Counted from the first letter of the stretch, positions 8,491-60,453 are shown. The stretch: DNA of 64,000 nucleotides from a virus (IMGVR_UViG_3300018411_000639:48617-112616); one strand, 5' to 3'. The notes: a model not told the origin generated them from the letters alone. Numbers and translations: made by a program.

Positions 8491-9096
8491 CTATAATATC
8501 TGGATGGAGTAGTCTTTTGTGAATCCGCTATTCTCCATGACGATCTGTGCATAGGTTGACGGGATGCCCGCTTTTCCGATAGCCATCTTACGGAAGTCGT
8601 ACTTGCTTGGCCAAAGCGTACAGGTCTCACAAATGATTTCTTCTCTCTGCAGAGGGTCAAGGTTTGGGATAGCTGCGAGCTGTTTGTACTCGAAGCGGTT
8701 CAGAGTGCGGAAGACGAAGTACTGTCCCATGATTTCGATAGCCATAAGGTTGTAGTCTTCCCATTGGCGCTTCCACGTTTCGACTTGTGTGATGGTAGGT
8801 CCACCCACAAAGAGGGGTTCGTCATAAGCGTAGAGTTCAGGGTTGTCGCCGAGTTCTCCTTCTTCCGGCTCGCTTCTCAGCGTAGGTAGGTCTTCCCACT
8901 CTTCCGGTTCGTTCTGCAGATGAACACTTTCCTCGGTTTCTTCGCTTGTGTCGGAATTGACACCTTCAACTACTTCATTGTCATCTCGGAACGATGCGTA
9001 CAGGTCTTCGTTTGCTGCAGGTTCCTCACTGATTTGCTTGGATAGTTTTTCTTTGGCTTGCTTTGCTAATTGATCTAGGTTTCCTCCGCTGAACAT
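8491..9096 (-). CDS. Tail assembly chaperone-like protein (paralog 1)
   Basis: Acidic N-terminus; FVFRTLNRFEY..EEIICE motif; synteny. Confidence 0.6.
   Translation of the reverse strand: MFSGGNLDQLAKQAKEKLSKQISEEPAANEDLYASFRDDNEVVEGVNSDTSEETEESVHLQNEPEEWEDLPTLRSEPEEGELGDNPELYAYDEPLFVGGPTITQVETWKRQWEDYNLMAIEIMGQYFVFRTLNRFEYKQLAAIPNLDPLQREEIICETCTLWPSKYDFRKMAIGKAGIPSTYAQIVMENSGFTKDYSIQIL
8948..8963 (+). promoter_or_regulatory. 16-bp box (exact consensus), intragenic
   Basis: GTGTCGGAATTGACAC. Confidence 0.75.
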
Positions 9097-9115
9097 TTAC
9101 ATTCCTCACTCTCTC

Positions 9116-9631
9116 TTAGTCCGTGCTTTCCTCAATATCCTGTGCAATGAAATCGTAGGTCTTGAAAAGGGGGTTCCCTGACGCATCCACTTCCACACCT
9201 GAACTACGCAAGAACACGCGCTTTAAGGTTGTGTTCAAGGGATGGTTCGCTCCAAAGTCCACTCGGATCTCCAGATCGTTCCCTCTCAATGCTTCCGTGT
9301 TACCTTCTTTGAAGAAGGGTGTATGTTTGGGTGTCCCATCGTACTTAGGAACGCCGCCCGCTTCCTCTTCTTGTTCATATCCGGCCATAGCGTTCGTAAC
9401 CAGAGCACCGTACTCTTCTTCCAGTTTAGCCTTTGTGTTGGCGTCCAGTCTCCCTGTTGCGGTCAGACCTTTCTTGGTCTGGTAAGCTTTAACGGCTTCC
9501 TCGTAAGCAAGGGTGTACTCTTTCCCGATCGCATACCCGTTCAAAGCCCCGACAGCGTTCAACATAATGCCCACTTCCTGAACCTCATCTGAGATATAAG
9601 GACTTCCGGGGACATACTTTAGTTCTGACAT
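9116..9631 (-). CDS. Peptidoglycan-binding domain fused to the C-terminal half of a tail-tube-like fold
   Basis: PG-binding motif EAVKAYQTKKGLTATGRLDANT; C-terminal LKRVFLRSSGVEVD..TYDFIAQDI resembles the tube C-terminus. Confidence 0.6.
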   Translation of the reverse strand: MSELKYVPGSPYISDEVQEVGIMLNAVGALNGYAIGKEYTLAYEEAVKAYQTKKGLTATGRLDANTKAKLEEEYGALVTNAMAGYEQEEEAGGVPKYDGTPKHTPFFKEGNTEALRGNDLEIRVDFGANHPLNTTLKRVFLRSSGVEVDASGNPLFKTYDFIAQDIEESTD

Positions 9632-9655
9632 AATAGCACCTCTTTTATCTTCTCC

Positions 9656-9684
9656 ATTTTACCATTTAACTTTGACCTTCACAA
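9656..9684 (-). promoter_or_regulatory. SigA-type promoter for 9116..9631 and downstream genes
   Basis: TTGTGA-17 bp-TAAAAT with extended -10 TG, in the intergenic gap. Confidence 0.55.
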
Positions 9685-9685
9685 T

Positions 9686-10549
9686 CTAGGCTTTGGGGAT
9701 ATATACGCCAGGTTCACCTGTTTTGGAGATGTACCCTTTTGTTCCGTTGCTGAGCTGGACATAGTACCAATCCGATACAGTGCGCAGAATCCTTACGTTA
9801 GTGGATTGCTCCAGTGTTGTGATGGTTGGGTAAGTCATACCCGGACCTGTCCGTATCGCCGTATCAGGAGCCACAAATAAGTTTGCGAACGACCCTGTGT
9901 TCAATCCTTGGATGACCGCAAGTGTTTCGGTATCGAGCACGCCGGATTGATTCAAGTTGTAGTCACTCTGGATTTGACGGACGACACCCTTTGTCTTCGT
10001 GTCGTAGAACCCGTTGATCTCGACAGCATAACCCAACTTCAGGAGTTGCGTCTGTGTTTTCCGTAATTCGTCGCTGAACTCTTTGTCCTCCAAAGACTGC
10101 AGGGAATTCAGTCTGCTTTCCTCTGCAGAGCTTGGACGGGATGAAGCTTTCCACGTAGAGCCGGACAAAGGCTGCAGGTGAGATAAGGCGCTCTCCACCC
10201 ATCCGGGGTAATTGTTCTTCTTCGCTTCCTCTGCAACTTCTTCATTCACTGAATCAACAATGGCTTCGATTTCTCTTGTGCTGTTCTCTTCGGGATTGTG
10301 GATCGGCACGCGCAACATCCCCACGACAATCCGATTCCCGATAGCGACATCATCAAAGGTACGAGAAGCGTAGCCAAAGATCGGTTTCAGTTGCTCCTGT
10401 ATCTGATAACTCAAGCCAGAGATATGCGTCAGCTTTTCCCCGTTGACGTAAATAGCGACGTCGGCGCCTGAAAAGTATTCCTCGGTAAAGATGTTATGCT
10501 CCCGCGTATCGCCAGAGTTGTACTTTAAGGTAAGGCGGTCATCTGCCAT
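9686..10549 (-). CDS. N-terminal half of a tail-tube-like fold + PG-binding + SH3b domain protein
   Basis: YFSGADV..LSYQIQEQLKPIFGYAS..GNRIVVG matches the tube N-terminus; VRQIQSDYNLNQSGVLD (PG-binding); IRTGPGMTY..WYYVQL..GYI (SH3b). Confidence 0.7.
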   Translation of the reverse strand: MADDRLTLKYNSGDTREHNIFTEEYFSGADVAIYVNGEKLTHISGLSYQIQEQLKPIFGYASRTFDDVAIGNRIVVGMLRVPIHNPEENSTREIEAIVDSVNEEVAEEAKKNNYPGWVESALSHLQPLSGSTWKASSRPSSAEESRLNSLQSLEDKEFSDELRKTQTQLLKLGYAVEINGFYDTKTKGVVRQIQSDYNLNQSGVLDTETLAVIQGLNTGSFANLFVAPDTAIRTGPGMTYPTITTLEQSTNVRILRTVSDWYYVQLSNGTKGYISKTGEPGVYIPKA

Positions 10550-12207
10550 CAGTTATTCCTCCTTGTTTCAATGGTCCACTTCCACGGCGTTTCTCCTTGA
10601 GGGTAAACAATCAGCTCCACTTGAGTCGGTTCGCTTCCTTGGTCGGGATTGTAGAGGAGCGCATCCTGTACGTCCTGCAGCGTCATCGAACGCGAGGAGT
10701 TGGCCGGAATGATGATAGTCTTCGTAAAGACCTCCTTCTTGCCGTTAGCGTACTTGGCGATGGCGGAAACCTTCACCACTTGCGGTACGTCTTGGGTTAC
10801 GCAGTCCATACCGAAAGTCTGACTGACCTCTTGCATGTTGTCCTGATAGATCAAAGTAGACTTACCTGGTTGCTTTAAGAAGAGGTACTGTGTGCCGTTC
10901 ACCTGCTCTTGTTTCTCTAGTCCGGCTTCGCTTTCCAATGTCTGCCACAACTCCCGATCGACAACGCCATCAGCAGTCAGGCCGCTTTGTCGCTGAGCCT
11001 CTTTTACTGTGAGGATGGTAGCTTCATCCATTAGACCATTCACGACCACACGCCCTGCGATATACTCACGGTCAGCTAGGCTGTTGAGTGCCTTCTGTAG
11101 GACGGAAACCAAGGCCCCTTTATCGCCTTCCCTGAGTTCAGGGTAAGTACTCTCTTCTCTCTGATTCCTGTAAGCATAGACATCATATTTGGACACGTAG
11201 CCCATCCTTGTTTCGTACCAGTCGCCTTCTTCTCCTGCTATAACCAGATCCTCTTTGTACGGATAGACAGTCAATGGTACAGACAGAACCGAAGGACTCT
11301 CGTAAACGAGTGCGCCGCTTTTATTTGTCACGACAGCTGACGGATTGATTGGCGCGCCCCCGGCCTCATAAGACTGTAGCAACAGATAGGTTTCATCGTC
11401 CACACCGCCACTGACGCGCAAGCCCTGGCTGGATTGGAAGGCACGAACCGCATCATAAGTACGGGTGTCGTAAATGCCAGTAGAGACCAAACTGTCGTGC
11501 CCTGCAGCCCGCAGAAGGTCTTGCACTCTTCTGACATCCTGGCCACTCAAGGTGTTGGCCGGGTCCAGTGAGAGGTTTCGCTTCAAGTCCGTGCGGTAAG
11601 AGCGAAGATTCTCTGCATTCAAATCTTTGTCATAACGGATATCGAAGTCCGTCAAGGTTCGGATTGTGGCAGACCCTTGCCCCTCTGTACTGTTTCCGAA
11701 CGCTTCTCCTGTGAAATTCGTCAGATCCCTTGCAACAAAGCTGAAGGTGTTCTCTGTGAAGATATCCTCTATGGAAAGAACTTGTCCTTCGTCTGTAATA
11801 TCCACACCGTAAATGAACATCTGGACAGCTGAACCGTACTCATTAGCGCAGATGATCATGAGATCAAACAGAGGAAGTTCATCCGCCTTCAGTTTCCCGA
11901 ACTTCTTGAGCCATGGTGCTTGGTCCAGTAACTCGTTTACCCAATGCTGATTGATAAGTGTAAAGACCATCGTGCCTGCATAGATTCGCGTCCCACGGGT
12001 AAACCCGCCAACGTTGACCTTTCCGATCAATGGAACAGGCTTCTTGTCTCGGAACATGGAATAGGAGAAGGTAGTCAGAGAACCCAGTACGATTGGCTTT
12101 GTTTGTGGCAGTAAGGCAAACACCAGAGCATCCGTACCAGAGAAGGTTCGGTAGTATTTCGGAATAGATGAATCGGTCATTCGGCTCGCTTCGTTGTATT
12201 CTGGCAA
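10549..12207 (-). CDS. Tail-tube paralog (baseplate/tube initiator-like) with two PG-binding domains and an SH3-like domain
   Basis: TFSGTD..GTRIYAGTMVF..LPLFD..NEYG..FSFVARD is a complete tube-like domain; AVRAFQSSQGLRVSGGVD. Likely TTG start at 12207 after AAAGGAG (ORF open to 12231). Confidence 0.7.
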   Translation of the reverse strand: MPEYNEASRMTDSSIPKYYRTFSGTDALVFALLPQTKPIVLGSLTTFSYSMFRDKKPVPLIGKVNVGGFTRGTRIYAGTMVFTLINQHWVNELLDQAPWLKKFGKLKADELPLFDLMIICANEYGSAVQMFIYGVDITDEGQVLSIEDIFTENTFSFVARDLTNFTGEAFGNSTEGQGSATIRTLTDFDIRYDKDLNAENLRSYRTDLKRNLSLDPANTLSGQDVRRVQDLLRAAGHDSLVSTGIYDTRTYDAVRAFQSSQGLRVSGGVDDETYLLLQSYEAGGAPINPSAVVTNKSGALVYESPSVLSVPLTVYPYKEDLVIAGEEGDWYETRMGYVSKYDVYAYRNQREESTYPELREGDKGALVSVLQKALNSLADREYIAGRVVVNGLMDEATILTVKEAQRQSGLTADGVVDRELWQTLESEAGLEKQEQVNGTQYLFLKQPGKSTLIYQDNMQEVSQTFGMDCVTQDVPQVVKVSAIAKYANGKKEVFTKTIIIPANSSRSMTLQDVQDALLYNPDQGSEPTQVELIVYPQGETPWKWTIETRRNN

Positions 12208-12235
12208 AGCATAACACTCCTTTCGTATCATATAG

Positions 12236-12260
12236 AAAAAGGCCGACCAAATGGCCGGCC
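12236..12260 (-). terminator. Intrinsic terminator after the tail tube gene
   Basis: GGCCGGCCA-TT-TGGTCGGCC hairpin followed by TTTTT on the minus strand. Confidence 0.75.
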
Positions 12261-12271
12261 CTGTTCTATGT

Positions 12272-13069: not shown

Positions 13070-13144
13070 TGAGATTCCTCCTTTGTTTATGTGGCCTGAC
13101 TATTGCCGGGGCTTTTACACCCCGGATTGGTCGGCGTTGCTAGA

Positions 13145-15525: not shown

Positions 15526-16293
15526 CTATAAATCATAAGTAATGTCTGAAGCTTTATAAATATCGGGTTCAGCCCCTATATCTACCGTAGGTTCGGCATT
15601 GACCTCTAAGTCAATGCGCTTGATGGTACTGAGTCGCACGGCACTAATCCGTTCCAGACGGATGTAGTACATCAGACTTCGCATCGGGATACCATCTAAG
15701 AAGTGCATGGATTGACGAGGATTTACTTCCTTGAGGAAGAAGATCTCGCTGATGCCCTGTCTTTTCAGATATCCTGCGTAAGCTCCGATTAGTCCTTCGA
15801 ACCGAGCCATCAGCTTGCGGGTCTCTAGGTTGGTCCTGCCCCAAAAGTTGAACTCCACAATGCAATCGAACCACTGTCGGTATAGATTGAATGCGTCACC
15901 CGTCTTCTGTCCGGCCACCACTTCGAAAACCGTATCTGTTAGCGTGGGCTTGATGGATGTTTTTTCAGCAACCTCTCTGCTGTTCACATCGAAGGTAATC
16001 TGAGGAAGAACCAGTTTGTCCGGATCTTCCCCTCTCGGATAGTCCAGTGAGAGGACCCCCCACCCGTCACCCCATGCTGCGTTGAGAACTCTACGCAACA
16101 AAATCCCAAGCTGTTCGATATCGTCGATGTTTTCATCGGCTGCCATGCGAGCCTTCTCGCTCTCAACCGAACTTTCATCCGACTGAATGTAAGAGATGGC
16201 TTCCGGAGCCTTCTTTCGTGTCGGAATTGACACATCTGACGAAGGCTTTCCGAAATAGCTATCGTAAGCTACCTGATCTATCCCACTGGACAT
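15526..16293 (-). CDS. Tail terminator/completion-like protein
   Basis: Located before the sheath; RQWFDCIVEFNFWG..RSLMYYIR. Confidence 0.5.
   Translation of the reverse strand: MSSGIDQVAYDSYFGKPSSDVSIPTRKKAPEAISYIQSDESSVESEKARMAADENIDDIEQLGILLRRVLNAAWGDGWGVLSLDYPRGEDPDKLVLPQITFDVNSREVAEKTSIKPTLTDTVFEVVAGQKTGDAFNLYRQWFDCIVEFNFWGRTNLETRKLMARFEGLIGAYAGYLKRQGISEIFFLKEVNPRQSMHFLDGIPMRSLMYYIRLERISAVRLSTIKRIDLEVNAEPTVDIGAEPDIYKASDITYDL
16218..16233 (+). promoter_or_regulatory. 16-bp box (exact consensus), intragenic
   Basis: GTGTCGGAATTGACAC. Confidence 0.75.
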
Positions 16294-19277: not shown

Positions 19278-19306
19278 ATTATACTATAGGGTGTCGGAAT
19301 TGACAA
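19278..19306 (-). promoter_or_regulatory. SigA-type promoter of the neck/tail genes, overlapped by a 16-bp box (19291-19306)
   Basis: TTGTCA-17 bp-TATAAT; the box GTGTCGGAATTGACAA covers the -35 element and part of the spacer. Confidence 0.8.
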
Positions 19307-22582: not shown

Positions 22583-23092
22583 CTATCTGAATTTTAGTAT
22601 GTCGTAAATGACATAGATTGTGTCATCCGCTTCAAGAGCGAAATCTTTTGACACCCACCGGATCTGCATCTTGCCTATGTCGGTTGGGTTTTCTTCTGGG
22701 ATGTAATCGGCGGTTGGGTACTGCCATTGTCCGTTGATCACAATACCAACCGACTTCAGGTCAACCACGCCTCCGTCAATCCCGATACCGATAGGAGTCA
22801 GCAATACGCCCAGATGTTCGTCCGATGAAGTCAGAAGCGTCATACGGCGCTCTGCCGTGGCGATCTGTTTTCTCCTCCACCCCGCCACTAGTTCGTCCCA
22901 GACATAGATGGTAGCCTCATCAAGCACTACCCGCATCTGTCCGTTGACATCCCCTCGGACTGGAAGAAGTGACCGCGTCGCAACCGGGGCTTCGAGGTGC
23001 TTGGCTCCCGCAAGCAGGACCTCCAATTCTTTTTGGAGGTTTTCTTGGGTGATGCCGGAGACCTGACGAGCCTTCAGTAATTGTTGTCTCAT
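22583..23092 (-). CDS. Fibre-associated protein (short paralog of 21769..22572)
   Basis: LLKARQV N-terminus and NG..DY..FALEADD C-terminus match the neighbour. Confidence 0.6.
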   Translation of the reverse strand: MRQQLLKARQVSGITQENLQKELEVLLAGAKHLEAPVATRSLLPVRGDVNGQMRVVLDEATIYVWDELVAGWRRKQIATAERRMTLLTSSDEHLGVLLTPIGIGIDGGVVDLKSVGIVINGQWQYPTADYIPEENPTDIGKMQIRWVSKDFALEADDTIYVIYDILKFR

Positions 23093-35535: not shown

Positions 35536-36627
35536 CTATTCGAGAATGATTTTAAATCGGTAACTGTCTGCGAAGGCCGGTCCGAACTGCGTGATGTCTC
35601 TGTCTATCTTAATCAGGAAATCGTAGCTGACATTAGGGAGCAAGTCAGGTAGTTCCAGTTTCGTCTGGTACGTCGGCGTGTCGCTCGCAAAGGCCAGCGT
35701 AACTTGATCGCCTCCGCGATAATAAGACACAGGCGCCACAGACAAAGCGATACCTCTAAGTGGTTCCGCTTCTCTGCTGATGATGGTTACAGGAAGAACT
35801 GTTTCCTTGCCGGTAACCCTGCCGAGATCAAAGATATTGGCGTTAAGTACCGCTTGCTCTGCTATCAGGACTTCGACGTTGTACGCGTAATCGTACACAT
35901 CCCCTCCGCACAACGTAACGTCTTCAAGTCCACCAATCTCAATTCCGTCTGCACCCACAACCGACAATCTTGCGCTCGTCAGAGGGAGTAGTACTGTAGT
36001 CAGATCAACCAGTGCTTTCCCGTTGGAGTTCTTTACGGCGTCCTGATTCGCAAGGACATTTACGCCATTTTGGTCATAGATGCGAACGGTCGCATCGCTC
36101 GGAACGTTATTGACCGACAGTAGGTTAGATTTGTAGAAAGATACACCCAAGACTCGCAGCATATCTGAAACATAGGTCTGGACTCCATCAATGAAGAATC
36201 CGACTTCGTTCGCATCGTTCATTTCGGAATTACCTGCGTTCACCCAAGTCAGTCCGTCGCGCGAGATACAGAAAGTATGTACGCCCTTTTCTACGCACAG
36301 TTTGATGTAACGAAAGAGACTAAGCTCTTTCGCTCCTGTAAAGTAGTGTTGGCATTCAATCTGGTTCCCTGTATTCGACAAAACCACAAGACCCGAAACG
36401 TCAGATAACGTCTCGGGGTTGTGGTAGATCTGGGCTTGCATGACATAATCGTGAGAAGGTGTCGGAATTGACATGGTGAGACGTTCTTCTCCATGCTCCA
36501 ACCCAACATACCCCGCCTCAAAGACCACCCGACTGTAATCGTTGGGCGACAGGTTCCATAGCAAATTGCTGCTCGCAAAGTCATCTTCGAACAGGTATCC
36601 ACTGGAAACTTTCGTCAAAGTAGCCAT
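35536..36627 (-). CDS. Virion protein with ConA-like lectin/glucanase fold
   Basis: FEDDF N-terminus; YIKL..GVHTFCISRDGLTW resembles a ConA-like sandwich. Confidence 0.5.
   Translation of the reverse strand: MATLTKVSSGYLFEDDFASSNLLWNLSPNDYSRVVFEAGYVGLEHGEERLTMSIPTPSHDYVMQAQIYHNPETLSDVSGLVVLSNTGNQIECQHYFTGAKELSLFRYIKLCVEKGVHTFCISRDGLTWVNAGNSEMNDANEVGFFIDGVQTYVSDMLRVLGVSFYKSNLLSVNNVPSDATVRIYDQNGVNVLANQDAVKNSNGKALVDLTTVLLPLTSARLSVVGADGIEIGGLEDVTLCGGDVYDYAYNVEVLIAEQAVLNANIFDLGRVTGKETVLPVTIISREAEPLRGIALSVAPVSYYRGGDQVTLAFASDTPTYQTKLELPDLLPNVSYDFLIKIDRDITQFGPAFADSYRFKIILE
36459..36474 (+). promoter_or_regulatory. 16-bp box (15/16), intragenic
   Basis: GTGTCGGAATTGACAT. Confidence 0.7.
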
Positions 36628-37090: not shown

Positions 37091-40000
37091 CTAGGTTTGT
37101 CTGATGGTCTTTCTTTTGCCTTTCGACTTCTTGTTGTGGTGCAAGTCGAAGTAATCCTCGAGGCGCTGAATAAGATCCGTGATCGCCAGATTTCCGTGAA
37201 CCGCATCTTCAAAGAACGATTCATTGTTCTGGTAAAGGTCTTCGTAGATAGCAAGTTTCTTTATCAGTTCGTCTAGGACTCGGTTTCCACTCCCCACCAC
37301 GGGGTGATACTCTGTAATGATGTCCGCCTTAACCATGTCGGAAATGACAACGTTGGCTATGTTTATTATACCACTGCCTTCGCCATGGTAAAGCAATTTC
37401 AATTCGTTTTTCAGTCCATCTCCGGGCTTCAGCAAATCAAAGCTCAGATCCAGAGGAGAACCTTGGAATGCACCCTGTTGTTCTCCGTTCAAGAAGACCT
37501 CAAAAGCCCCTCCTGTCTGATAGGCTTTCATCTTGATAGACGTATTGGCCGGGTTCTCGATGAAGAAGGTAACGGAGCTTTCTTCGGTTACTACCGTATT
37601 CGTTAGGGTGTATTTAGATGTGTCGATGTGCATATTGGTTTTCTCGCAAGGGATAGCACTCTCTCCAGTATGGAAGCCCCCTTGAAGAGGTTCGTAGATA
37701 TAGCTGACACGGTACCGCGAGTTCTTCAGGATAGAAGCCTCTCCGTACCACCTAATCAAGCGTAAGACACGATAGGCTTGTTGCTGTAGGCCTGGCGGAA
37801 TCTCTAGCTGAATGTAGGCGTCCATGAACTCGAGCATCTTAGCGACCGAGTCCCGCATATCCATTGCTCCGAACTTGAAGATGTTCTCCTGCCACGTTTT
37901 GTTGTAAATCAAAATCATGTGACGGAGCAGGCTGACGTTTACATCCAGATACTCTCTGGCGATACCCTTGTACTCCGGCAAAGGGTGTGAGATCGGTCGC
38001 TCAACCAAGAAGGAGCCATCGGCCAATGTGTTGACAAGTTTCAGCGGCTTCAACGTATCCGGATCAATCAGACCTTCTTTATAAGAGGAATAGTCGTAAT
38101 CCAACTGAGGAAGCAGTAGTTCATCGACACCTCCCGCTGTCAAGTTGAGCAAGTCATCATGATCGCTTGCGTTGTACACCCATTCGGTCTTGGGCGTGTA
38201 GCGGAGATCTTTCAGCACTTTAGCTAGGCCGACGTACTTCTCAAGTTCTGGATGCGTCTCAATAGATCTCTTGTCGACCAAGTACCTGCTCGAATTCCGG
38301 TCATAATTGGTGGCGCGGTCTTTCTGCTCAAGTAAGAGGCTACCACCTTCGTCAAGGATACGATAAAGTTTGACCAAAGGAACGTCGCTTTGATGTCTGA
38401 AGATATTCTTCTCAATCTTGAGCGACAGAGAGGCTTGGGTCAGCGTTGTGCTTTTCTCGGCCTTGACCTCCAAGCCGACATCTTCTGGCTTGGGAACTTC
38501 AACGGTCCCCGACACGACCTTAGCTGCTCTCGTGCCATCCTGAAAAACATCCGTACTCTTTTGAGGTGACCCCAAGCGAAGCCCATCCTCTTTGTCTCGA
38601 GCATCGTTGACGACACCATCAAAGCGGGTATCGAGGTCAGCTTCCGTTGTTTCTTTGGAATAACGTCCGAGGCTGATGTCGCTCTCATGGATGCCTGTCG
38701 TCTTGAAAATCGCATCCACTGATGTATCTTTTGTTTCGAATACGGACCGGCCTCTCTGATCTACTTCGATATACAGTCCTTCACAGTTTAGCCCGTTTAC
38801 GGTCGCATCAATCGCAACCATCTCTTTGGCCAGAGCAATAACGTACTCTCTTTTGTCCAGGAAAGAACCGTTGAGTGAGACAGGGTTCATCTTTCGACCT
38901 CTCGCCTGAAGAGTAATTATTCCTTCTTGAATCCCGACAGCCAGTAGCTTCGACAAGTTCTTCTGCTGACTCTCTGTCCAAGCCGCGCCCATCCCTCGAC
39001 CAAAAGAGATATCCTGGAACGGAACATCTATGTCGACTTCCAGTTTTTGGTAGCGAAGACTGAACAGCTCGGAGATGCCCGCTGACAAAGAACTTTTCCC
39101 AGCCGAGACATTTTCCTCCAAGCCGAAGGTCGGCAAGTCTTTCGACAGGAACTGGCCTTCTTCTCCGTACATGAATTGATGTTCAGACCGGGAGGCGGAT
39201 TGCACAGCATCTCTGGAAACACCATAAGACTCCTTCCAGAGAGATGTCATCGCGTCAGATGGATCGTTCTGGAATGTTTTCCTGTCTCGGGATGCACTCT
39301 GGAATGGCCGGCCTTCGTAGAGATCCATGAGGCGACCGAACCAATTCTCCTCTGGTGACAACAGGTCTGCTTGATAGGCGTCTTTCGATAGAATCTGCAC
39401 GCCTTCGATTGACTGCACGCCGTAGGCTTCCTTTTCCAGTATCCAGTCGATAGCACTTACAAGAGCCTGCTTTTCAGGAGAGGACAACCCAACGAAGTTC
39501 AGGTCGTAGAAGTCTTTCGGATCTTTTGTAATCTTCGAGATAAAACTGGCAGCATTGGCAGCATAGACTTCTTTGACGTTACTGTCGCTTGCTATCTGGT
39601 TTTCTTGTACGAGAGCTGACTTGCTTTCTCCTGACGTGAATCGGACAGTTTCCGAACCCAAGTCTTTGTACTCCTTGGACGCACTGTCTTTGTCCGTCAT
39701 GTCTGTGACGTTCTCGCTCATCTCTTTTTTGTTCGCATCCATTTGACAGTCGGAGGAAGATTCAACGCCTTTTGTTCCTGACCCCGCAGAGATTTCATCC
39801 CACTCGAGGAAGAGAGAGAGAAAGAACTTCTCCAGGGCTAGACTTTCCCGAACCAGAGCTGATAATTCCCGAGTGTCCCAAAAAGTAGCCTCAGAGCTTG
39901 ACGCTTCTTTTGGTCTCCCGGGTTCTAGGCTTTGAGGGCCGGAGGAAAAAGCTTCGGGTACGTCTTTTTCGAGGATATGAGTTTCTTCGACACGAGACCC

Positions 40001-45235: not shown

Positions 45236-46240
45236 CTAGACACCTCTCTCAACTGGAGAGAATACAAGGTAGCTGACATCACGTGCTTCGTCGTAGATAA
45301 GAGTCCACTCGCCCGCTACAGGTCCTTGTGGTTCGTCCTCGTCTTCTTCGTCAAAGGGACTCCCATATAGGTAGGAGTTCTCGAAGTCAACGTCCGAAGT
45401 CCCTATCCTTCCTACCATCTTGATATAGACGACATTCGTCTTCAAGCTGACACCAAAGCTTTTGTCATCCGGGAACATTTCCAAAACCTCAATCGGAGCC
45501 ACGAAGCTCGCATCCAGATCGCCTAAAAATAGGTCCTCATAGGCGTCTTCTCGGCTGACGACCTCTTGGACTTCCCTCTTGATAAAGAACTGAATAGGGT
45601 CGCTCCAGTGACCATTCACGGCCTTCACCCTTGCGTAGTACAATCCTTCTGTCAGGTTCAACGAGGGGAGGTATTCACTTTTCGCGTATTCACCTACGTT
45701 GTTGATCAGAAGTTCGTCACACAAGAGCGTCTCGAAAGTTTCCTCTCGCGACAACTGGAAGGTGTATGCCTTCGTTTGCTCGTCACCCCACGTGAAGACA
45801 GGAATCTCTGACGAGATCGTGCCGAAGCGAGGTGAGAGGAATGTCGGCTTAGCCCCTGTTGCGCTGCTCTCCGTATAGAAGATGCCCACAAAATCAGTTG
45901 CCAACCCTCTCCCAAGAACATCCGTTAGCCCTCCTGCCCGAATGAACACAAGGTATCGCCTATTCTCCGCTAAAGGATTCGTAGGACTGAAGATGATTGT
46001 CCGATCATCATACGAGGCTTTCCCTTGTACCGTTTCGTACTGAGAACGGTCCATCGAAGCGAGGTTCACAAAATGCAAACCCGGATCGGAGAGGACAACA
46101 AGATTGCCAATGATGGAACCTGTGTCTAGGTCAGAGTTAAAGCGGATGCGAATGTCCTCATGTACATCCACGCCAATCGACTGCATTGCCGGGGTCATTG
46201 ACTCCACCCGAAGGCCCATCGTTTCGACAGAACTCTTCAT
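45236..46240 (-). CDS. Ig-like (Big_5-type) + Fn3-like domain virion protein
   Basis: IRIRFNSDLD..IIFSP..L....Y.V.I..GLTD..G; YTFQLS..F..YYARVKA. Confidence 0.65.
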   Translation of the reverse strand: MKSSVETMGLRVESMTPAMQSIGVDVHEDIRIRFNSDLDTGSIIGNLVVLSDPGLHFVNLASMDRSQYETVQGKASYDDRTIIFSPTNPLAENRRYLVFIRAGGLTDVLGRGLATDFVGIFYTESSATGAKPTFLSPRFGTISSEIPVFTWGDEQTKAYTFQLSREETFETLLCDELLINNVGEYAKSEYLPSLNLTEGLYYARVKAVNGHWSDPIQFFIKREVQEVVSREDAYEDLFLGDLDASFVAPIEVLEMFPDDKSFGVSLKTNVVYIKMVGRIGTSDVDFENSYLYGSPFDEEDEDEPQGPVAGEWTLIYDEARDVSYLVFSPVERGV

Positions 46241-46268
46241 GCAATATCACCTACTTCCGAGGTTATTC

Positions 46269-46718
46269 TTATTCCTTTTTAGCAGCAGCTTTTTTGGCCG
46301 GAGCTTTCTTTGCAGGAGCGGCTTCAACTACTTCTTCTGTAGTTTCAACTACTTCTTCAACTACTTCTTCTGTAGTTTCTTCCGCAGTTTCAACCGTTTC
46401 AATGGTCTCTTCAACTTTTTCTTCTGCAATTTCAACTACTTCCACTTCTTCAACTACTTCTAGTTCTTTCAGTGCTTCAGCCATAGCTGCTTGTTTCTCT
46501 GCAGTCTCAGCTGTTTCGGTTTTCAGTTCACCGGCTTTGATGTCTACAACACCATTCACGTCAATCAATGTCTTTCCTCTTAGTCCTCTCAGAATAGAAG
46601 CGCTAAGCCGAGGGGAAGACCCCCTCGGCTTGAGTACGCTTAAATGGAGAGGAGCCTCTGGACAAAAGAACACGTAATTATCTCGAACCGCTGGGTTCAG
46701 TTGTAATACAATACTCAT
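46269..46718 (-). CDS. Small head-associated protein with acidic low-complexity tail
   Basis: Directly after the capsid gene; VEETTEEVVEE repeats and a basic AKKA terminus. Confidence 0.6.
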   Translation of the reverse strand: MSIVLQLNPAVRDNYVFFCPEAPLHLSVLKPRGSSPRLSASILRGLRGKTLIDVNGVVDIKAGELKTETAETAEKQAAMAEALKELEVVEEVEVVEIAEEKVEETIETVETAEETTEEVVEEVVETTEEVVEAAPAKKAPAKKAAAKKE

Positions 46719-46753
46719 CGTCTAGGCCTCCATTCCTTTAGTCTTGTTTGTGA

Positions 46754-52600: not shown

Positions 52601-52816
52601 TTAGTTCGTAGTGTCTTCATCCATAAAGCCGGTTCCGGCAGTTGGGTTGTTCACGATACCCGCAGCCACAAGGACTGCTAGGAACGCGTTGGCCAACTGA
52701 TCAAAGTCGTCCTGAACAAGTTCCACACCGAATGCCTTCGCTACGAGAGGAGCAAGAGCAATGAGGGATATCCAGAATGCTTTGTTCTTCATTCTTTTTT
52801 TCAGCACATTTTTCAT
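52601..52816 (-). CDS. Holin
   Basis: RMKNKAFW, two hydrophobic helices, GIVNNPT..G..D; ATG 52816 after AAGGAG. Confidence 0.85.
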   Translation of the reverse strand: MKNVLKKRMKNKAFWISLIALAPLVAKAFGVELVQDDFDQLANAFLAVLVAAGIVNNPTAGTGFMDEDTTN

Positions 52817-52833
52817 AAGATCTCTCCTTTTCA

Positions 52834-53997
52834 CTAGACGTTCAGGTAGTCGCTATGGACAAACCCGCCGTTATCTCCAAAGTAGATATTCCACCAAGTG
52901 CCAATCTTCTTACCAAGACGAACTTTCTCGCCCTTCTTGAGTTGACCGACGATCTTAGCTGATGTATTGCCTCTGGCACGAACATTCAAGACGTCCGCGT
53001 TCACCGTGCCCCACACCTCTTTCTCTGCCGCTTTCACGGGAGAAACCGATGCAGTTCCCACTTTCAGGTATGAACCGTGAACGAATCCACCGCTATCCCC
53101 GAAGTAGATGTTCCACCAGTCACCATGTTTGCTACCAAGCTGAATTTTCTGTTCGCCTTGTAACTGACCGATGACAGCGTAGCTTGTGGAAGGACCTTGA
53201 CGGACGTTAAGATTCTCGCCTTTCGGCAGATTCACGACCGCATAGCCGCTTCCTACAGTTGCTGCCGAAACTACTTTGACTTCTTCTTTCAGCTTCAAGA
53301 TCTGTCCTGCTTTGATGAGGTTTCCGGTCAAGCCGTTGATCAACCGTAGAGAACCTACAGAGACCTTCGTTTTGGTTGCTATCCCGAAAAGCGTGTCACC
53401 TTGCTGAACCGTGTATGTGCTGCCAGATGGTGTCGGAGTTGACACATTAGAAGCTCCCGTACTGCCGGATTGAAGTTCTTTGATACGAGCTTTCAATCGC
53501 TTCTTGAAGGCGGCCCACTTTGCTTCGTCAATGTACATGATCGGACAAATCTTGCCCGTCACGTCGAAGTGACGAATGAGTGCAACGTCTGGCGCTCCCA
53601 TTTCAATAGCTTTCTTGGCTGCGAAATCAATCGTATTCTCGACAGTCTGCTCCCAGTCATTGTCTGTGTTAACGCACATCTCGAATCCGACTGTAAAATC
53701 ATTCGGACGCGTTGCGCCGCTAAGTGCGAAGGTGGACTTGGCATAAGCTGTGTACTTCGTACCGCCTGCGTGCCAAGATACCCAGCCTGCTTCAATGCAC
53801 TCCACTACTTCAGAGTCGTCAATGTTGTAATTGGCGGAAGCTCCGATTGCGGGGTGGTTCTGGAAGTAGTTCCGGTTTGCGCGGGCATTTGCGCCTTTGC
53901 TGTAGTTCGCGGTGTAGTGGAAGACGAACGCTTTCAGTGACTTGATTTTGCGCTTTGGATTGTTGTTGGTGATAGGCATTTTGATAATTGCATACAT
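52834..53997 (-). CDS. Endolysin: N-acetylmuramoyl-L-alanine amidase (Amidase_2) + LysM + two SH3b domains
   Basis: VFHYTA..SWHAG..GFEMC..RHFDVTGKICP; YTVQQGDTL (LysM); LNVR..WWNI twice. Confidence 0.92.
   Translation of the reverse strand: MYAIIKMPITNNNPKRKIKSLKAFVFHYTANYSKGANARANRNYFQNHPAIGASANYNIDDSEVVECIEAGWVSWHAGGTKYTAYAKSTFALSGATRPNDFTVGFEMCVNTDNDWEQTVENTIDFAAKKAIEMGAPDVALIRHFDVTGKICPIMYIDEAKWAAFKKRLKARIKELQSGSTGASNVSTPTPSGSTYTVQQGDTLFGIATKTKVSVGSLRLINGLTGNLIKAGQILKLKEEVKVVSAATVGSGYAVVNLPKGENLNVRQGPSTSYAVIGQLQGEQKIQLGSKHGDWWNIYFGDSGGFVHGSYLKVGTASVSPVKAAEKEVWGTVNADVLNVRARGNTSAKIVGQLKKGEKVRLGKKIGTWWNIYFGDNGGFVHSDYLNV
53430..53445 (+). promoter_or_regulatory. 16-bp box (15/16) inside the endolysin linker
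   Basis: GTGTCGGAGTTGACAC. Confidence 0.7.
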
Positions 53998-54025: not shown

Positions 54026-54041
54026 GTGTCGGAAATGACAC
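54026..54041 (+). promoter_or_regulatory. 16-bp box just downstream of the predicted endolysin transcription start
   Basis: GTGTCGGAAATGACAC within AAAGGTGTC-N6-GACACCTTT. Confidence 0.8.
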
Positions 54042-54050
54042 CTTTCAGCC

Positions 54051-54079
54051 ATTATAGCATACTGCTTTTTGCAGTGCAA
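54051..54079 (-). promoter_or_regulatory. SigA-type promoter of endolysin-holin
   Basis: TTGCAC-17 bp-TATAAT with extended -10 TG. Confidence 0.75.
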
Positions 54080-54199
54080 AACAGCCTCCGTTGAGCGAAT
54101 GATCGCCCTTCCGCTCTGACCCCTCTAAGAGAGAGCATAAGCGAATAGGAGGCGTCCAACTCCCTACAACTTCAATATACGCAAAGTTCATTCGGATTG

Positions 54200-55222: not shown

Positions 55223-55233
55223 AGTACCTCTCC

Positions 55234-57527: not shown

Positions 57528-57541
57528 CGGGCGTCACCTCG

Positions 57542-57949: not shown

Positions 57950-57960
57950 TCCTTAGCCTC

Positions 57961-58548
57961 CTAAAAGAACGGAAGTCCTGCGATATCCCGCTCACCTTGA
58001 TTGTTGTAACCTACCGATCCGCCAGTAAGAGATCGACCGATAAAGTTAGCCCCCATATAAGCTCCGGCGGTAGCTCCTGCGCGGATGGCGTTCGTCTTTT
58101 TGCTGCCACTGCGGTAGTACCCTGCCGTAGCACTACCGAACGTCGCAAGGTTTCCCCCAAGTGTGTCGTCTTTACCCTTTATGTCGCGCAAAGCCCCGAA
58201 GTTTTCTCCGACTCCTTTGCCTTTCATGTTCTCGACAGCTGCCTTTTGCCTAGTCCAATCGCCGTCGTACATTTCTTTGTTGTCCTGATACCAGTTGCTG
58301 ACAGATTGAGCTTTGTCGATGTCTTTCTTGGCTTTGCCTTCGAACTGCTTAGCGAAGCCCTCATCGTCCATCAGATTCTTGAATTGTCTACTGACATCGC
58401 TTTTGCTTGCCTTTCCTTCGGCGATGGAGCTGGCTGTTTTTATGAAGCTGTCCGTCTGGTTGAATATTTTCTGACCTCCGCGCTGAATCGCCTCATTGCT
58501 ACCTAAGACCGTGCGGCCTAAGCCTTTCATACTTTTCATAAAGCTCAT
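57961..58548 (-). CDS. Gly/Ala-rich protein (possible internal virion protein)
   Basis: 195 aa; AGATAGAYMGANFIGR..DIAGLPFF. Confidence 0.65.
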   Translation of the reverse strand: MSFMKSMKGLGRTVLGSNEAIQRGGQKIFNQTDSFIKTASSIAEGKASKSDVSRQFKNLMDDEGFAKQFEGKAKKDIDKAQSVSNWYQDNKEMYDGDWTRQKAAVENMKGKGVGENFGALRDIKGKDDTLGGNLATFGSATAGYYRSGSKKTNAIRAGATAGAYMGANFIGRSLTGGSVGYNNQGERDIAGLPFF

Positions 58549-58550
58549 TT

Positions 58551-59333
58551 TTATTCTTCCCCTTTCGTTGGTCCTAAGTTTTCGTCCGGTTCCATCTCGA
58601 TAATCTCTCCATCAAAGGTGAGTTCGTCGATGTCCGGCATAAGCTCGGCCACTTTCTTGAATATACTTACGGCTCTCTCGGACGGATTCATTGCTCCGCC
58701 TGACCCACTTCTGTCTTTGCGGGTCGAGTTCAACAGGTTGAAGATCTTGTACCTCTTTTCCTGCAGGTGATTCTTATACTCTGCTTCAGGGGATACCGTG
58801 TCCTCGTAATACACCTTGCCGCGGTTGTCTATCTCTGCGATTGTCTTAGAGATGAATCCGGCATTGATGGCTACAAGGTTCTCTGCACGAAGCATCATGA
58901 TTTCGTTCTCGACCAGATCCCGTATCAAAGAAGCATCAACCAAGTCTTCGTCCAGGATCGCTTCTCCGGTTATGTCAATCTCAAAGTGACGGCACCAAGA
59001 TTCGTAGCGCGCAATAACGGCACCGGCCTCCATCGGACAACGCTGACCGACAATGCGGAACGCTGGGTTGATGATACACACCTCTGCGAAAGGACAGTCC
59101 GGACCTTTACAGATGATCGGAACCCCTGCGAACATACCGTGCTTGATCTTGTAAACCTGCGAAGCCTCTTGCGCTACTTGAATCATGGCCGGATGCATCC
59201 CCCACATCCGTTCCATGATATTGCCCGAGTTGACTGTCGGAGCGTTCCCTGTCGTCAGGTGAGAAGATGGACCTGCAGGCGACAGCTCACTTACTTCATT
59301 TCCGTCTATTTCTTCATTCATATTTTTCACCAC
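58551..59333 (-). CDS. Cys-motif protein, candidate terminase small subunit
   Basis: C-x4-C-x5-C..C cluster; upstream of terL; function inferred from position only; start may be ATG 59321. Confidence 0.4.
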   Translation of the reverse strand: MVKNMNEEIDGNEVSELSPAGPSSHLTTGNAPTVNSGNIMERMWGMHPAMIQVAQEASQVYKIKHGMFAGVPIICKGPDCPFAEVCIINPAFRIVGQRCPMEAGAVIARYESWCRHFEIDITGEAILDEDLVDASLIRDLVENEIMMLRAENLVAINAGFISKTIAEIDNRGKVYYEDTVSPEAEYKNHLQEKRYKIFNLLNSTRKDRSGSGGAMNPSERAVSIFKKVAELMPDIDELTFDGEIIEMEPDENLGPTKGEE

Positions 59334-59524
59334 CCTTCGATGCTCTTGGCGCCTTTGTTCGTAAATTCTTTGGATGAATCGAAGCCGTAAGCGATCTTGC
59401 TCTTCATACGCTGATAGAGAGCGTCGTTCGTCTGTACGCCTTGATTGCCTGTCATGATAACCTTGCCGTAAATACTATGTTCGTTTGCTTCTGCGTTGGC
59501 TCGAAGCCCTGCCGGAGTTCGCAT
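59327..59524 (-). CDS. 65-aa hypothetical protein, first gene of the packaging run
   Basis: AAAGAGGTG RBS; its stop overlaps the next gene's start region. Confidence 0.6.
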   Translation of the reverse strand: MRTPAGLRANAEANEHSIYGKVIMTGNQGVQTNDALYQRMKSKIAYGFDSSKEFTNKGAKSIEGW

Positions 59525-59565
59525 CGAAACACCTCTTTCTGTTGTACTGTCTGTGCTGACTCCAA

Positions 59566-59635
59566 TCCAAACCCATCGAATTCGAGGGGGTTAAACAGGC
59601 CCCACTCCAAACTGGTCGAATTCGACCAGTTTAAA
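59566..59635. repeat. Two palindromic direct repeats with a 40-bp period
   Basis: TCCAAACCCA-TCGAATTCGA-GGGGGTTAAA and TCCAAACTGG-TCGAATTCGA-CCAGTTTAAA. Confidence 0.8.
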
Positions 59636-59659
59636 AACTTCCTGTTATTTTTGTCTATA

Positions 59660-59800
59660 CGAAAACCGGGCCACACAAGGGAGATGGGGTGTGGCCCGGT
59701 TTAGGTGAGAGGAATGTAGGTAGTCGTATTGCGGGTACGACTTCCGGGATAAGGAGGTAAAGAGTTGGAATTGAAAGGTGAATTTCCATTCGACCCTTCA
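59660..59800 (-). ncRNA. Candidate sRNA with C-rich anti-SD segments
   Basis: Weak promoter TTACAA-17-TATATC; three hairpins, the last a 14-bp terminator-like stem; single-stranded ACCUCCUU. Confidence 0.4.
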
Positions 59801-59835
59801 CTTACGATATACGGTTCAACCTCTGCCTTTGTAAC

Positions 59836-60096
59836 TTACTTGCGCTTGCTCTCGCAGTCAGGACAGGTGGTCTTCCTGCGTTCTTTACGGCGGATCGTAA
59901 TAGACTTCAAGCACGTATTGCACTCATAGACTTTGTCTTTCTTATTTTGCAGATTAGCTCGAGGGATGTCGTGCTCCAAACGGGTACGATTAACCGTTGC
60001 GCGCGAGCAGCCGATGATGTCTGCGATTTCGTTGTCGTTCAGTCCTTCTTCAGAACTCAACCGTTCAATCTCTTTTACTATAAAGCTGATAGCCAT
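59836..60096 (-). CDS. HTH + zinc-ribbon transcription regulator
   Basis: GLNDNEIADIIGCSRATVNR helix-turn-helix; CNTC..CPDC. Confidence 0.8.
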   Translation of the reverse strand: MAISFIVKEIERLSSEEGLNDNEIADIIGCSRATVNRTRLEHDIPRANLQNKKDKVYECNTCLKSITIRRKERRKTTCPDCESKRK

Positions 60097-60132
60097 TTGC
60101 GGGGGACTCTCCTTCTGTGCGTGGATGTGATG

Positions 60133-60148
60133 GTGTCGGAATTGATAC
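60133..60148 (+). promoter_or_regulatory. 16-bp box (15/16) directly upstream of the HTH gene
   Basis: GTGTCGGAATTGATAC. Confidence 0.75.
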
Positions 60149-60417
60149 TATTGAGCCTTCTCTGGTTTGCGAGCTGACGACATGCGATACATGTTCTTCG
60201 TTAGCTTAGTGAGGCCCTTGTCGAATGCCTTGCGTAGACGGGACTTCTCTGCGGGAGCGGTAGCTTGCTCTTCCAACTCCTGAAGACGCTTGAGTTTTGT
60301 AGTCAATCGCATCGCCTCTCGCTGTAGTTCTTCTGCCGCTTCCCTCTTCTTAGTGGGTGTCTGCTTAGCCTTGTTTGTTTCCCATGATTTTAGTTGACGC
60401 TTGCTCTTTGTGTTCAT
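60148..60417 (-). CDS. Small basic coiled-coil protein
   Basis: 89 aa, Lys/Arg-rich; AAAGGA RBS. Confidence 0.7.
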   Translation of the reverse strand: MNTKSKRQLKSWETNKAKQTPTKKREAAEELQREAMRLTTKLKRLQELEEQATAPAEKSRLRKAFDKGLTKLTKNMYRMSSARKPEKAQ

Positions 60418-60437
60418 AATAGGCCGTCCTTTCTATG

Positions 60438-60453
60438 GTGTCAATTCCGACAC
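60438..60453 (-). promoter_or_regulatory. 16-bp box (exact, inverted orientation); its TTGACA also forms a TTGACA-17-TATTAT promoter (60416-60444)
   Basis: Plus strand reads GTGTCAATTCCGACAC. Confidence 0.8.

Follow-up and report, generated by a model that had tools for sequence, protein, structure and literature searches.

The locus raises a simple question: what is the role of a 16-bp word that recurs at promoters and inside genes of a jumbo phage, nearly always in the direction of transcription? The phage, a relative of Bacillus phage 0305phi8-36, is represented by a 112.6-kb contig, of which we analysed a window of 64,000 nt (contig positions 48617-112616); coordinates refer to this window unless genome positions are stated. 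To our knowledge, nothing is known experimentally about transcription scheduling in 0305phi8-36-like jumbo phages. Based on sequence comparisons, we propose that the box is most likely the docking site of one regulator, which would gate transcription across the phage genome.

An earlier note had listed nine copies of the box. In a motif search of the window that allowed mismatches, GTGTCGGAATTGACAC was found at all nine positions and with the same mismatch numbers: the copies at 8948, 16218 and 60438 are exact, those at 19291, 36459, 53430, 54026 and 60133 carry one mismatch and the copy at 37335 carries three. Eight of the nine share one orientation and the copy at 60438 is inverted. A tenth match at 5114, inverted and with three mismatches, is probably due to chance. 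Ten matches in the window compare with 0.59 expected, a number reached in none of 100 shuffles, and k-mer statistics identified the box word as by far the most over-represented 9- to 11-mer in the genome. The entire contig holds about 20 copies: 19 sense copies with at most two mismatches in the 14-nt core, together with the perfect inverted copy at 60438; at genome position 573, an exact 12-nt core runs in the same direction as the plus-strand ORFs there. Because the genes lie on the minus strand, the box reads (G)TGTCAATTCCGACA(C) in the sense direction. Among the 21 good copies, 20 are oriented with transcription, 60438 being the sole exception. Both reversed copies are located where gene direction switches, 60438 lying 550 nt before the first plus-strand gene and genome position 573 inside the plus-strand block. 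A weak sense copy with two core mismatches, ATGTCATTTACGACAT, is found at 22600..22615 (minus strand) at the 3' end of a 169-aa gene, with a TAAAAT hexamer 2 nt downstream; it may be real or a chance match.

Analysis of the information content revealed that conservation ends sharply at the 16-nt borders and that the flanks up to 40 nt on either side are at background level. There is no second conserved block at promoter spacing, and no conserved initiation bases follow 3' of the box. A bipartite sigma-70-type promoter of a phage sigma factor was rejected, as the information sits in a single 16-nt block. A mobile MITE- or REP-like repeat was also dismissed: nothing is conserved beyond the 16 nt, and the intragenic copies are in frame and arise from codon choice within homologous residues.

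The copies are spread over 105 kb of coding and non-coding DNA. About three quarters of them are intragenic, and five are intergenic in a genome with 3% non-coding DNA (p = 4e-4). Within genes, 9 of 17 copies lie at most 300 nt from the start codon (p = 0.005); nine are positioned 60-270 nt into the 5' part of genes and eight end 21-70 nt upstream of a start codon. In the series of boxes that follow promoters, the copies are 111-876 bp apart. By analogy with known systems, these series, together with the clustering near gene starts, are the pattern of roadblock sites. The note's second suggestion, centromere-like or genome-organising sites, found no support: no par genes were found among the proteins scanned or near the boxes, and the copies are promoter-tied, co-oriented and not grouped as in a parS array.

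Four intragenic copies illustrate how the word is accommodated by proteins, all on the minus strand. The exact copy at 8948..8963 lies in a 201-aa gene, 134 nt from its start, and reads GVNSDT; the exact copy at 16218..16233 lies 61 nt into a 255-aa gene and reads VSIPT; the copy at 36459..36474 lies 154 nt into a 363-aa gene and reads MSIPT; and the copy at 53430..53445 encodes VSTPT in the interdomain linker of the endolysin, upstream of the holin and portal genes. The use of two reading frames (VNSDT and VISD versus VSIPT, MSIPT and VSTPT), described earlier, is thus correct on the minus strand.

Comparison with other phages was informative about the level at which the box is maintained. 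It is kept in the closest relatives despite a GC content of 37-38% there versus 50% here, where it follows the lysis-cassette promoter and also forms a conserved island, written in rare codons, in an otherwise unalignable endolysin linker. This island, at the place matching 53430, is kept in the relatives L061, L063 and L079, hence in four phages including the present one, and its flanking residues cannot be aligned. The peptide FEMCVNSD is encoded with the box spelling in L063 and with other synonymous codons in L061, and two of the four CCG proline codons of L061 fall in boxes. Judging from these alignments, selection on the box acts on nucleotides and not on the protein, as the earlier note had argued from the reading frames.

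The distribution of the box in the family is narrow. G001, a complete relative with similar GC content, lacks the box, and k-mer statistics revealed no comparable repeated word there, although it has homologues of the HTH protein described below (HTH86), of the sigma factor and of a 3024-aa protein. Since the box is lineage-specific while these three genes are kept, an accessory regulator fits better than the core transcription machinery. The 0305phi8-36-like family has more than 1000 portal relatives. An alignment-based portal search of metagenomes added only two short box-bearing contigs (L136 and L141). When 24 kb were compared with 50,697 phage records by megablast, no match was obtained, and portal searches with one query sequence gave no result in either metagenome or GTDB contigs. 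Scanning IMG/VR for exact 15-mer matches returned 57 contigs with a single match each; one (L010) is the same contig as L063, and the others look like chance matches. No prophage relatives were detected by the alignment-based portal search in 185,579 GTDB species genomes, which makes an immunity repressor of the lysogeny type doubtful.

The box shows a strong link to promoters. Of 11 independent sigma-A-like sense promoters, eight carry a box in the interval from -40 to +320, compared with 0.69 expected (p <= 5e-5), and three to four boxes are preceded by a perfect TATAAT whose end lies 9-16 nt upstream (background 0.15% per site, p = 4e-6). Relative to their promoters, boxes overlap the -35, occupy +3 to +25 or follow within a few hundred nt. 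At 19278..19306 (minus strand), a sigma-A-type promoter (TTGTCA-17-TATAAT) precedes by 31 nt the 280-aa gene at the head of the neck/tail block; the -35 and spacer of this promoter are formed by the box at 19291-19306. The box likewise supplies the -35 region of the ORF157 promoter in 0305phi8-36; for this reason, it is absent from the RNA of both promoters. An internal extended -10 promoter (TGgTATAAT; 37335..37392, minus strand) is situated close to the 3' end of a 1250-aa gene; its -10 ends at 37365 and is followed after 14 nt by the degenerate box at 37335-37350. The lysis-cassette promoter (TTTGCA-18-TGcTATAAT, 54080-54051; with its box 54026..54080, minus strand) carries a box at 54026-54041, which begins 9 nt past the -10 and leaves 29 nt to the ATG of the endolysin gene. 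From this promoter, the endolysin (Amidase_2, LysM and SH3_3 domains; 52834-53997) and the holin (Phage_holin_1; 52601-52834), both on the minus strand, are controlled.

The strongest promoter is a perfect sigma-A promoter (TTGACA-18-TATAAT, 12 of 12 positions) at 60468..60497 on the minus strand, whose -35 sits in a degenerate inverted box, GTAGCAGATTGACAC. The letter-perfect inverted copy (60438..60453, plus strand) begins 14 nt after its -10, covers +8 to +23 and ends 21 nt before the ATG of the first gene, which encodes an 89-aa basic coiled-coil protein without a family match (p89; 60148..60417, minus strand). Another box (60133..60148, minus strand) lies between the p89 stop codon and the ribosome binding site of the next gene, encoding HTH86 (59836..60096, minus strand), an 86-aa protein that combines a sigma-region-4-like HTH with a zinc ribbon at its C terminus and is kept across the whole phage family (ORF110 in 0305phi8-36). 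A strong intrinsic terminator, read from the sequence as a GC-rich 12-bp stem with a T run (59661..59702, minus strand), closes this two-gene unit. The intergenic copies at control points had been recognised before, and their placement at the neck/tail -35, near the endolysin start and on both sides of the gene preceding the HTH gene is accurate. Further boxes are found at the SSAP-primase-helicase operon, before RuvC and at the end of a sigma-factor gene. The site itself, its statistics, its orientation, its link to promoters and the selection on its nucleotides are observed.

Two ways in which the box itself could serve as a conventional signal were discarded. The TTGACA it contains, taken earlier for the -35 hexamer, lies on the antisense strand in all copies except 60438 and so cannot be a -35 for the genes; antisense promoters using it were rejected because no -10 is present 17 bp downstream on the plus strand. 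A function as intrinsic (rho-independent) terminator was rejected as well, since no T run follows any sense copy; only the inverted copy at 60438, read on the plus strand, scores weakly in the terminator scan.

We give an even chance to the interpretation that the box, in its dispersed copies, is an operator/roadblock site at which a lineage-specific DNA-binding regulator acts. The box would be a docking site in double-stranded DNA, an operator doubling as a transcription roadblock, and would be read by one sequence-specific regulator peculiar to a sub-lineage of the 0305phi8-36-like jumbo phages. As boxes lie at or after nearly all host-type (sigma-A) promoters of the ~105-kb structural/replication arm, the bound protein would block either the start or the run-on of host RNA polymerase in the lysis cassette and in the head, tail, recombination/replication and regulator operons. 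Timing would then be set by release or bypass of the block, and bypass could come from transcription that the phage sigma factor drives. TGTC and GACA, the two arms, are almost invariant across copies; their centres lie 10 bp apart around an AT-rich middle, the geometry of an operator for an HTH dimer. The operator/roadblock network of the earlier note is retained as the best explanation because of the promoter link, the nucleotide conservation and the orientation, even though no reader protein was found; its focus on the silencing of late and lysis genes is too narrow, as boxes also occur at replication, recombination and regulator operons.

Similar arrangements are known from temperate phages. 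In Cluster A mycobacteriophages (L5 gp71, the TipsytheTRex repressor), over 20 short sites occur both at promoters and inside operons; their orientation is strikingly correlated with transcription direction, and a single reader has been proposed to block both initiation and elongation (PMC9283540). These stoperators are 13-mers without dyad symmetry that lie mostly in short intergenic gaps, and their reader is a known monomeric two-domain repressor (PMC9283540). The box resembles them with about 20 copies in 112.6 kb, at promoters and in operons and co-oriented with transcription. It differs in being a 16-bp quasi-palindrome with about three quarters of the copies inside genes, in a jumbo myovirus of a Gram-positive host for which neither a repressor homologue nor evidence of lysogeny was found. 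That a protein binds the box, that it represses and that the asymmetric centre would make its action direction-dependent is proposed by analogy with the stoperators.

The operators of the phiC31 c repressor (CIRs) and of P1 C1 are likewise many conserved 17-bp copies dispersed over several transcription units, including that of the regulator itself; the CIRs are symmetric and the P1 operators fully asymmetric, and in both temperate phages the reader has been identified. The box shares the high conservation, the dispersal and the presence at several transcription units, and we know of no sequence similarity to either. In Bacillus subtilis, the host global regulators CcpA (at cre sites) and CodY stop elongating RNA polymerase at 14-16-bp pseudo-palindromes located at promoters or a few hundred bp into the first gene, the same positional pattern as that of the box. 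The box is not a cre site, because the cre consensus needs a central CG, which it lacks. More generally, we know of no Firmicute regulator consensus that fits, having considered Spo0A (TGTCGAA), cre, CtsR, Rex/Fnr, TnrA, parS, LexA and WalR; all of these except WalR presumably fail at invariant positions.

One feature argues against a simple operator: the orientation bias of 20:1 and the invariant centre AATTCC, which is asymmetric, are both left unexplained by a symmetric dimer. In 0305phi8-36, a few copies of a variant, TGTCAATTCTGACA, occur in both orientations as a perfect 5-4-5 palindrome, from which all copies here differ by a one-sided T-to-C change; this shared change requires an asymmetric reader or recognition of a single strand or RNA. 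It is conceivable, though we consider it unlikely, that the box acts in RNA, as a small hairpin early in transcripts (5-bp stem, AAUUCC loop, predicted at -5.0 kcal/mol) that a phage RNA-binding protein reads, either in antitermination as with lambda N and boxB/nut or as a processing or stability signal. The strict sense bias, extended by 12 of 12 copies in L061, L063 and G002, would follow, as would the invariant asymmetric loop. The boxes at +3 to about +320 after promoters are placed like nutL and nutR, and the small, very basic p89 is encoded right after the strongest promoter with boxes on both sides; in lambda, too, a small basic protein gene accompanies a hairpin-capable element of ~15 nt soon after early promoters. 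However, lambda has two nut sites, whose RNA-loop recognition needs a boxA partner, whereas here there are about 20 boxes and no boxA-like partner. The perfect inverted copy would give another loop (GGAAUU), the -35-forming copies are missing from their own transcripts, and 0305phi8-36 has both orientations. As for the stem, the few arm variants (GTATC, GAGTC and ATGAC) occur without a compensating change, and of 31 copies only 16 have a Watson-Crick outer pair; pairing at flanking positions is mildly enriched, and there is a single TCTC...GAGA double change in 0305phi8-36, whose true hairpin motif covaries freely. Moreover, the loop measures 4 nt in one lineage and 6 nt in the other, and an Rfam scan assigned no family to any box (a Pistol ribozyme was found elsewhere only).

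The compact, directional 16-nt signal could instead be a promoter, possibly a hairpin promoter of the N4 type, for a phage-encoded transcription enzyme such as the sigma-like factor, a putative giant RNA polymerase or the homologue of 0305phi8-36 gp99. We judge this quite improbable. It would account for the eight copies that end shortly before start codons, for the two reversed copies where gene direction reverses and for the presence, in all box-bearing relatives, of a box no more than 1.5 kb upstream of the portal gene, and the phage does encode a sigma-family protein and the 3024-aa protein with its NADVDGD motif. On the other hand, the nine copies inside genes would yield truncated messages, initiation bases are not conserved, and the tight spacing behind host-type -10 boxes is left unexplained. 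G001, with its sigma and 3024-aa homologues, has no dispersed motif, and searches of Pfam and of PDB sequences found no match to the 3024-aa protein. Furthermore, 0305phi8-36 has another, far more numerous phage-specific promoter candidate, 21-bp sequences that are dispersed, co-oriented and located just upstream of ribosome binding sites (Hardies et al., 2007; PMC2147016). We re-derived this motif as NNNN-CGTTCGCACG-N'N'N'N' followed by TTTTGTA, confined to the right arm and with a freely covarying outer stem. It differs from the box in sequence, architecture and distribution: the box has no downstream block, and the motif is absent from this contig, where the CGTTCGCACG core is at background level (3 and 5 matches at <=1 mismatch).

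Elements of both alternatives are combined if the box is a strand-specific hairpin, in extruded DNA or nascent RNA, that is read by the phage's own transcription apparatus, either the sigma-like factor or, if the 3024-aa protein is one, a virion-borne giant polymerase. We regard this as distinctly improbable. If true, the boxes would be about 20 hand-over points at which units of the host polymerase are taken over, restarted or antiterminated, and a new class of promoter or antitermination signal in a Gram-positive jumbo phage.

A strand-specific DNA transaction other than transcription (programmed nicks as in the phages T5, phiKMV and tf, or an orientation signal for replication or packaging) or a site for a conserved host factor is very unlikely. 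Copies on one strand of the genome arm, in coding and non-coding DNA alike, would suit the former, and a word kept across very different GC contents is what a conserved host reader would require. Nevertheless, the enrichment at promoters and gene starts is not expected of nick or packaging signals, and the element is absent from G001 with its similar GC content.

Returning to the operator/roadblock interpretation, we searched for its reader. Pfam and PHROGs scans of about 60 proteins yielded no candidate reader or repressor and no gp71-like protein, owing to the missing half of the genome, where the reader gene probably lies. HTH86 was rejected as reader, as its recognition helix does not co-vary with the presence of the box: it is nearly identical in the boxless L097/G001 and L067 and differs in the box-bearing L079. 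Two proteins encoded amid boxes, p89 and p220, are found in this phage alone. The former lacks homologues in G001 and 0305phi8-36 and is a coiled-coil hairpin, the latter is a lead for a Sak/Rad52-type annealing protein, and neither resembles a classical regulator. HTH86, the sigma-like protein and the 3024-aa protein gave nothing usable as queries against PDB sequences.

One 16-bp word thus marks nearly every host-type promoter of the 105-kb arm, including those of the lysis cassette and the HTH-protein operon. The design of the site differs from that of stoperators, combining a palindromic frame, a directional centre and a mostly intragenic location. The 16-mer is a ready bait for the regulator and could serve as a portable, probably orientation-dependent transcription gate for Gram-positive hosts. 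Even if the explanation turns out to be ordinary, the box is still a clean case of synonymous-site selection for a regulatory word. Should a single regulator read the box, the logic of stoperators would reach beyond small temperate actinophages and include a jumbo myovirus of Firmicutes, and for the large, mostly uncultured 0305phi8-36-like family the box offers a concrete handle on transcription scheduling.

The window makes up the right-hand end (64 kb) of an IMG/VR virus contig of 112,616 bp (positions on the whole contig are marked "genome"), whose portal protein shares 53 % identity with the portal of 0305phi8-36, a 219-kb jumbo myovirus of Bacillus. Gene order is the same as in the left arm of 0305phi8-36: along transcription, a divergent junction leads to small genes and the terminase, followed by the lysis cassette (holin and an endolysin with Amidase_2, LysM and SH3 domains), portal, head, tail and giant proteins, a recombination/replication block (SSAP lead, AEP primase, DnaB, PD-(D/E)XK nuclease, RuvC) and a sigma-70-family gene. 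As the DNA-polymerase arm is absent, the contig represents about half a genome.

The minus strand carries nearly all genes, and the plus strand has genes only in window 61003-64000 and genome 52-3578. The latter block encodes a XerC/D-like tyrosine recombinase, which adjoins a class-A beta-lactamase-fold gene (Beta-lactamase2; together genome 2547-4594, outside the window) whose product begins with a signal or transmembrane segment. Both lack homologues in 0305phi8-36 and in G001, a complete 200-kb relative. The other block contains a 188-aa protein with an HExxH motif (window 62492-63058, +; weak PHROG metalloprotease match, phrog_87, 9e-4), which may be ImmA/IrrE-like, with no repressor partner recognised beside it. 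Close to the contig end, two plus-strand genes flank a full-length Pistol self-cleaving ribozyme (window 63073-63143, +; 72.1 bits, gathering score 34.5).

All copies of the 16-nt box listed in the earlier note were recovered at their positions and with the same mismatch numbers. The window holds ten matches with up to three mismatches, compared to 0.59 expected, and no shuffled sequence came close. Across the contig we counted 19 sense copies (≤2 mismatches in the 14-nt core), plus one inverted copy without mismatch (60438) and, at genome 573, an exact 12-nt core oriented along the local plus-strand ORFs. No other 9- to 11-mers in the genome come near the box words in over-representation. Read on the coding strand, the box is (G)TGTCAATTCCGACA(C), with positions 2-6 and 9-15 invariant, 7-8 variable (AT, TT, AC, AA) and 1 and 16 looser; right outside the 16 nt, information content is at background. 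The SigA -35 hexamer TTGACA, which the earlier note had pointed out, is indeed present, but given this reading it is antisense in every copy except one, and no -10 element follows it on the antisense strand.

Of the 22 copies of the box, five lie between genes, in a block with 97 % coding sequence (p = 4e-4), and nine of the 17 intragenic copies fall within 300 nt of a start codon (22 % expected; p = 0.005). The sense strand was scanned for strong sigma-A-type promoters, and two with a box-supplied -35 were set aside before counting. Eight of 11 promoters carried a box between -40 and +320 of the -10, whereas random placement yields 0.69 (p ≤ 5e-5). Four arrangements recur. In the first, a perfect or near-perfect -10 is followed after 9-16 nt by the start of the box (54026 at the lysis promoter, 60438, 37335, genome 11832); in the second, the box forms -35 and spacer (19291, TTGTCA-17-TATAAT). 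The third has the box inside the first gene, 120-315 nt downstream (genome 6131, 32129, 42743), and in the fourth, a second or third box follows 111-876 bp after the first (genome 11832/11721/11448 and 32129/31933; window 37335/36459, 54026/53430 and 60438/60133). Box-free intergenic gaps contain mostly terminator-like hairpins and no promoter.

The unit 60497-59661 is a self-contained operon comprising, in order, a perfect consensus promoter, the inverted box, the gene for an 89-aa basic protein (p89), a box, the gene for an 86-aa HTH/zinc-ribbon protein (HTH86) and a strong terminator. About 550 bp between the divergent transcription units (window 60454-61002; minus strand purine-rich) appear non-coding, without an Rfam match and with a spurious-looking 109-aa ORF as the only one. 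Elsewhere, a 12-mer, GAAGTAGTTGAA, is repeated six times at window ~46240-46750 (-), where it codes for the acidic EVVE-type repeat of a small protein whose gene follows the major head region; one more copy adjoins the box at 8948.

Among 39 IMG/VR and 26 metagenome loci collected via portal alignment, the box is confined to the closest relatives: three copies in L061 (76 % portal identity), four in L063 (64 %), five to six in L079/G002 (62 %) and one in L136. All of these are in sense orientation, and these relatives have a GC content of 37-38 % versus 50 % in this contig. L061 and L063 both have a boxed lysis-cassette promoter, with the box of L061 13 nt after TGtTATAAT. In the endolysin interdomain linker, the box is kept in four of four phages, coding for (V/E/M)S(T/N)PT, amid residues that cannot be aligned. 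L063 encodes the conserved amidase motif FEMCVNSD with codons that form a box; L061 uses other codons for the same residues, and two of its only four CCG proline codons fall in boxes. Judged from these sequences, selection acts on the nucleotides of the box, as the earlier note had proposed. Sites also turn over, since a box in a head-decoration-like gene is common to L061 and L063 and not found in this phage.

G001 has neither the box nor a comparable repeated word. That the box serves as promoter of a phage polymerase or sigma factor is quite unlikely: it lacks a counterpart there, copies lie within 5' parts of genes, and 0305phi8-36 has another candidate promoter motif (PMC2147016).

0305phi8-36 contains five exact and several near copies of a variant, TGTCAATTCTGACA, a perfect 5-4-5 palindrome found in both orientations. 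Some occupy sites comparable to those of boxes here: one follows the -10 in front of ORF120, upstream of portal, at a distance of 12 nt, another covers the -35 region of the ORF157 promoter, and further copies precede the major head gene and stand at the beginning of the primase block. Compared to this palindrome, all boxes share a concerted one-sided T-to-C change. A further word one letter off the variant, TGTCAATTCTAACA, occurs as one antisense copy at a common place near the portal gene 3' end, ~130 nt past the portal match, in distant, low-GC relatives (L081, L083, L088, L099, L122, L124, L127, L128, L134), which may reflect coding conservation or a relic site. A separate motif, NNNN-CGTTCGCACG-N'N'N'N' with TTTTGTA behind it, occurs over 20 times in the right arm of 0305phi8-36, in a common orientation and directly before ribosome-binding sites (e.g. 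144270, 164700, 181417, 205126). It evidently corresponds to the 21-bp 'phage-specific promoter' that Hardies et al. described in 2007 (PMC2147016); its outer stem covaries freely, and it looks like a hairpin-dependent signal.

We give about an even chance to the box being a duplex-DNA operator that would also act as a roadblock. Its arms are 10 bp apart around an AT-rich centre, and it occupies both repressor-typical positions (over the -35, +3 to +25) and positions like those of Bacillus roadblocks, which reach as far as a few hundred nt inside the first gene. The same reading is favoured by the exact inverted copy found at a promoter, by the occurrence of both orientations in 0305phi8-36, by the lineage specificity of the whole system, by boxes that supply the -35 of their own promoter and so are missing from its RNA, and by arm variants that are uncompensated, in contrast to the freely covarying motif of 0305phi8-36. 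An RNA hairpin signal of the nut/boxB type is unlikely. The weak points of the operator/roadblock reading are the asymmetry of the box and that no reader was found among ~60 proteins scanned. The 20:1 orientation bias, the invariant, non-palindromic centre and the one-sided T-to-C change call for either an asymmetric reader, like the two-domain monomer that binds stoperators (PMC9283540), or single-strand/RNA recognition; another strand-specific DNA function or a host-factor site is very unlikely.

Among the ~60 scanned proteins, DNA-binding domains were detected only in HTH86, the sigma-like protein and the recombinase. HTH86 (window 59836-60096, -) resembles sigma region 4 and is conserved family-wide, including ORF110 of 0305phi8-36. 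It is unlikely to be the specific reader because its recognition helix does not track box presence, being almost unchanged in box-free L097/G001 and L067 and different in box-bearing L079. The sigma-70-family protein (285 aa; genome 4647-5504, -, outside the window) scores above threshold for Sigma70_r4 and matches phrog_351 (sigma factor, 1.9e-11). Homologues exist in G001 and as 0305phi8-36 ORF193, annotated hypothetical; the 2007 genome paper states that none was recognised as a sigma factor in that phage. The last codons of its gene contain a box. Box-free G001 also has a full-length homologue (25 % identity) of a 3024-aa tail-block protein (window 1-2060, -, and upstream; genome 41602-50676), which has no match to Pfam or PDB sequences; its NADVDGD at residue 2097 is similar to the catalytic motif of multisubunit RNA polymerases. 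Neither p89 nor the 220-aa p220, two proteins found in this phage only, looks like a regulator. First in the primase-helicase operon comes the p220 gene (genome 11147-11809, -, outside the window), with two boxes in one shared frame (VNSDK, VNSDT); for p220, a protein atlas gives a lead to Sak/Rad52-type single-strand annealing proteins, at a score of 0.91 and a structural TM of only 0.37. The reader is probably encoded on the missing genome arm; a host protein is less likely.

By analogy, the box would work like Cluster A stoperators, phiC31 CIRs, P1 C1 operators and CcpA-cre roadblocks. It belongs to none of these families, as their site architecture differs and no homologous reader was among the proteins scanned. 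No prophage relatives were found in 185,579 species genomes; if the box is part of a repressor system, a virulent or episomal phage using it as a temporal switch would be likelier than prophage immunity of the classical kind.
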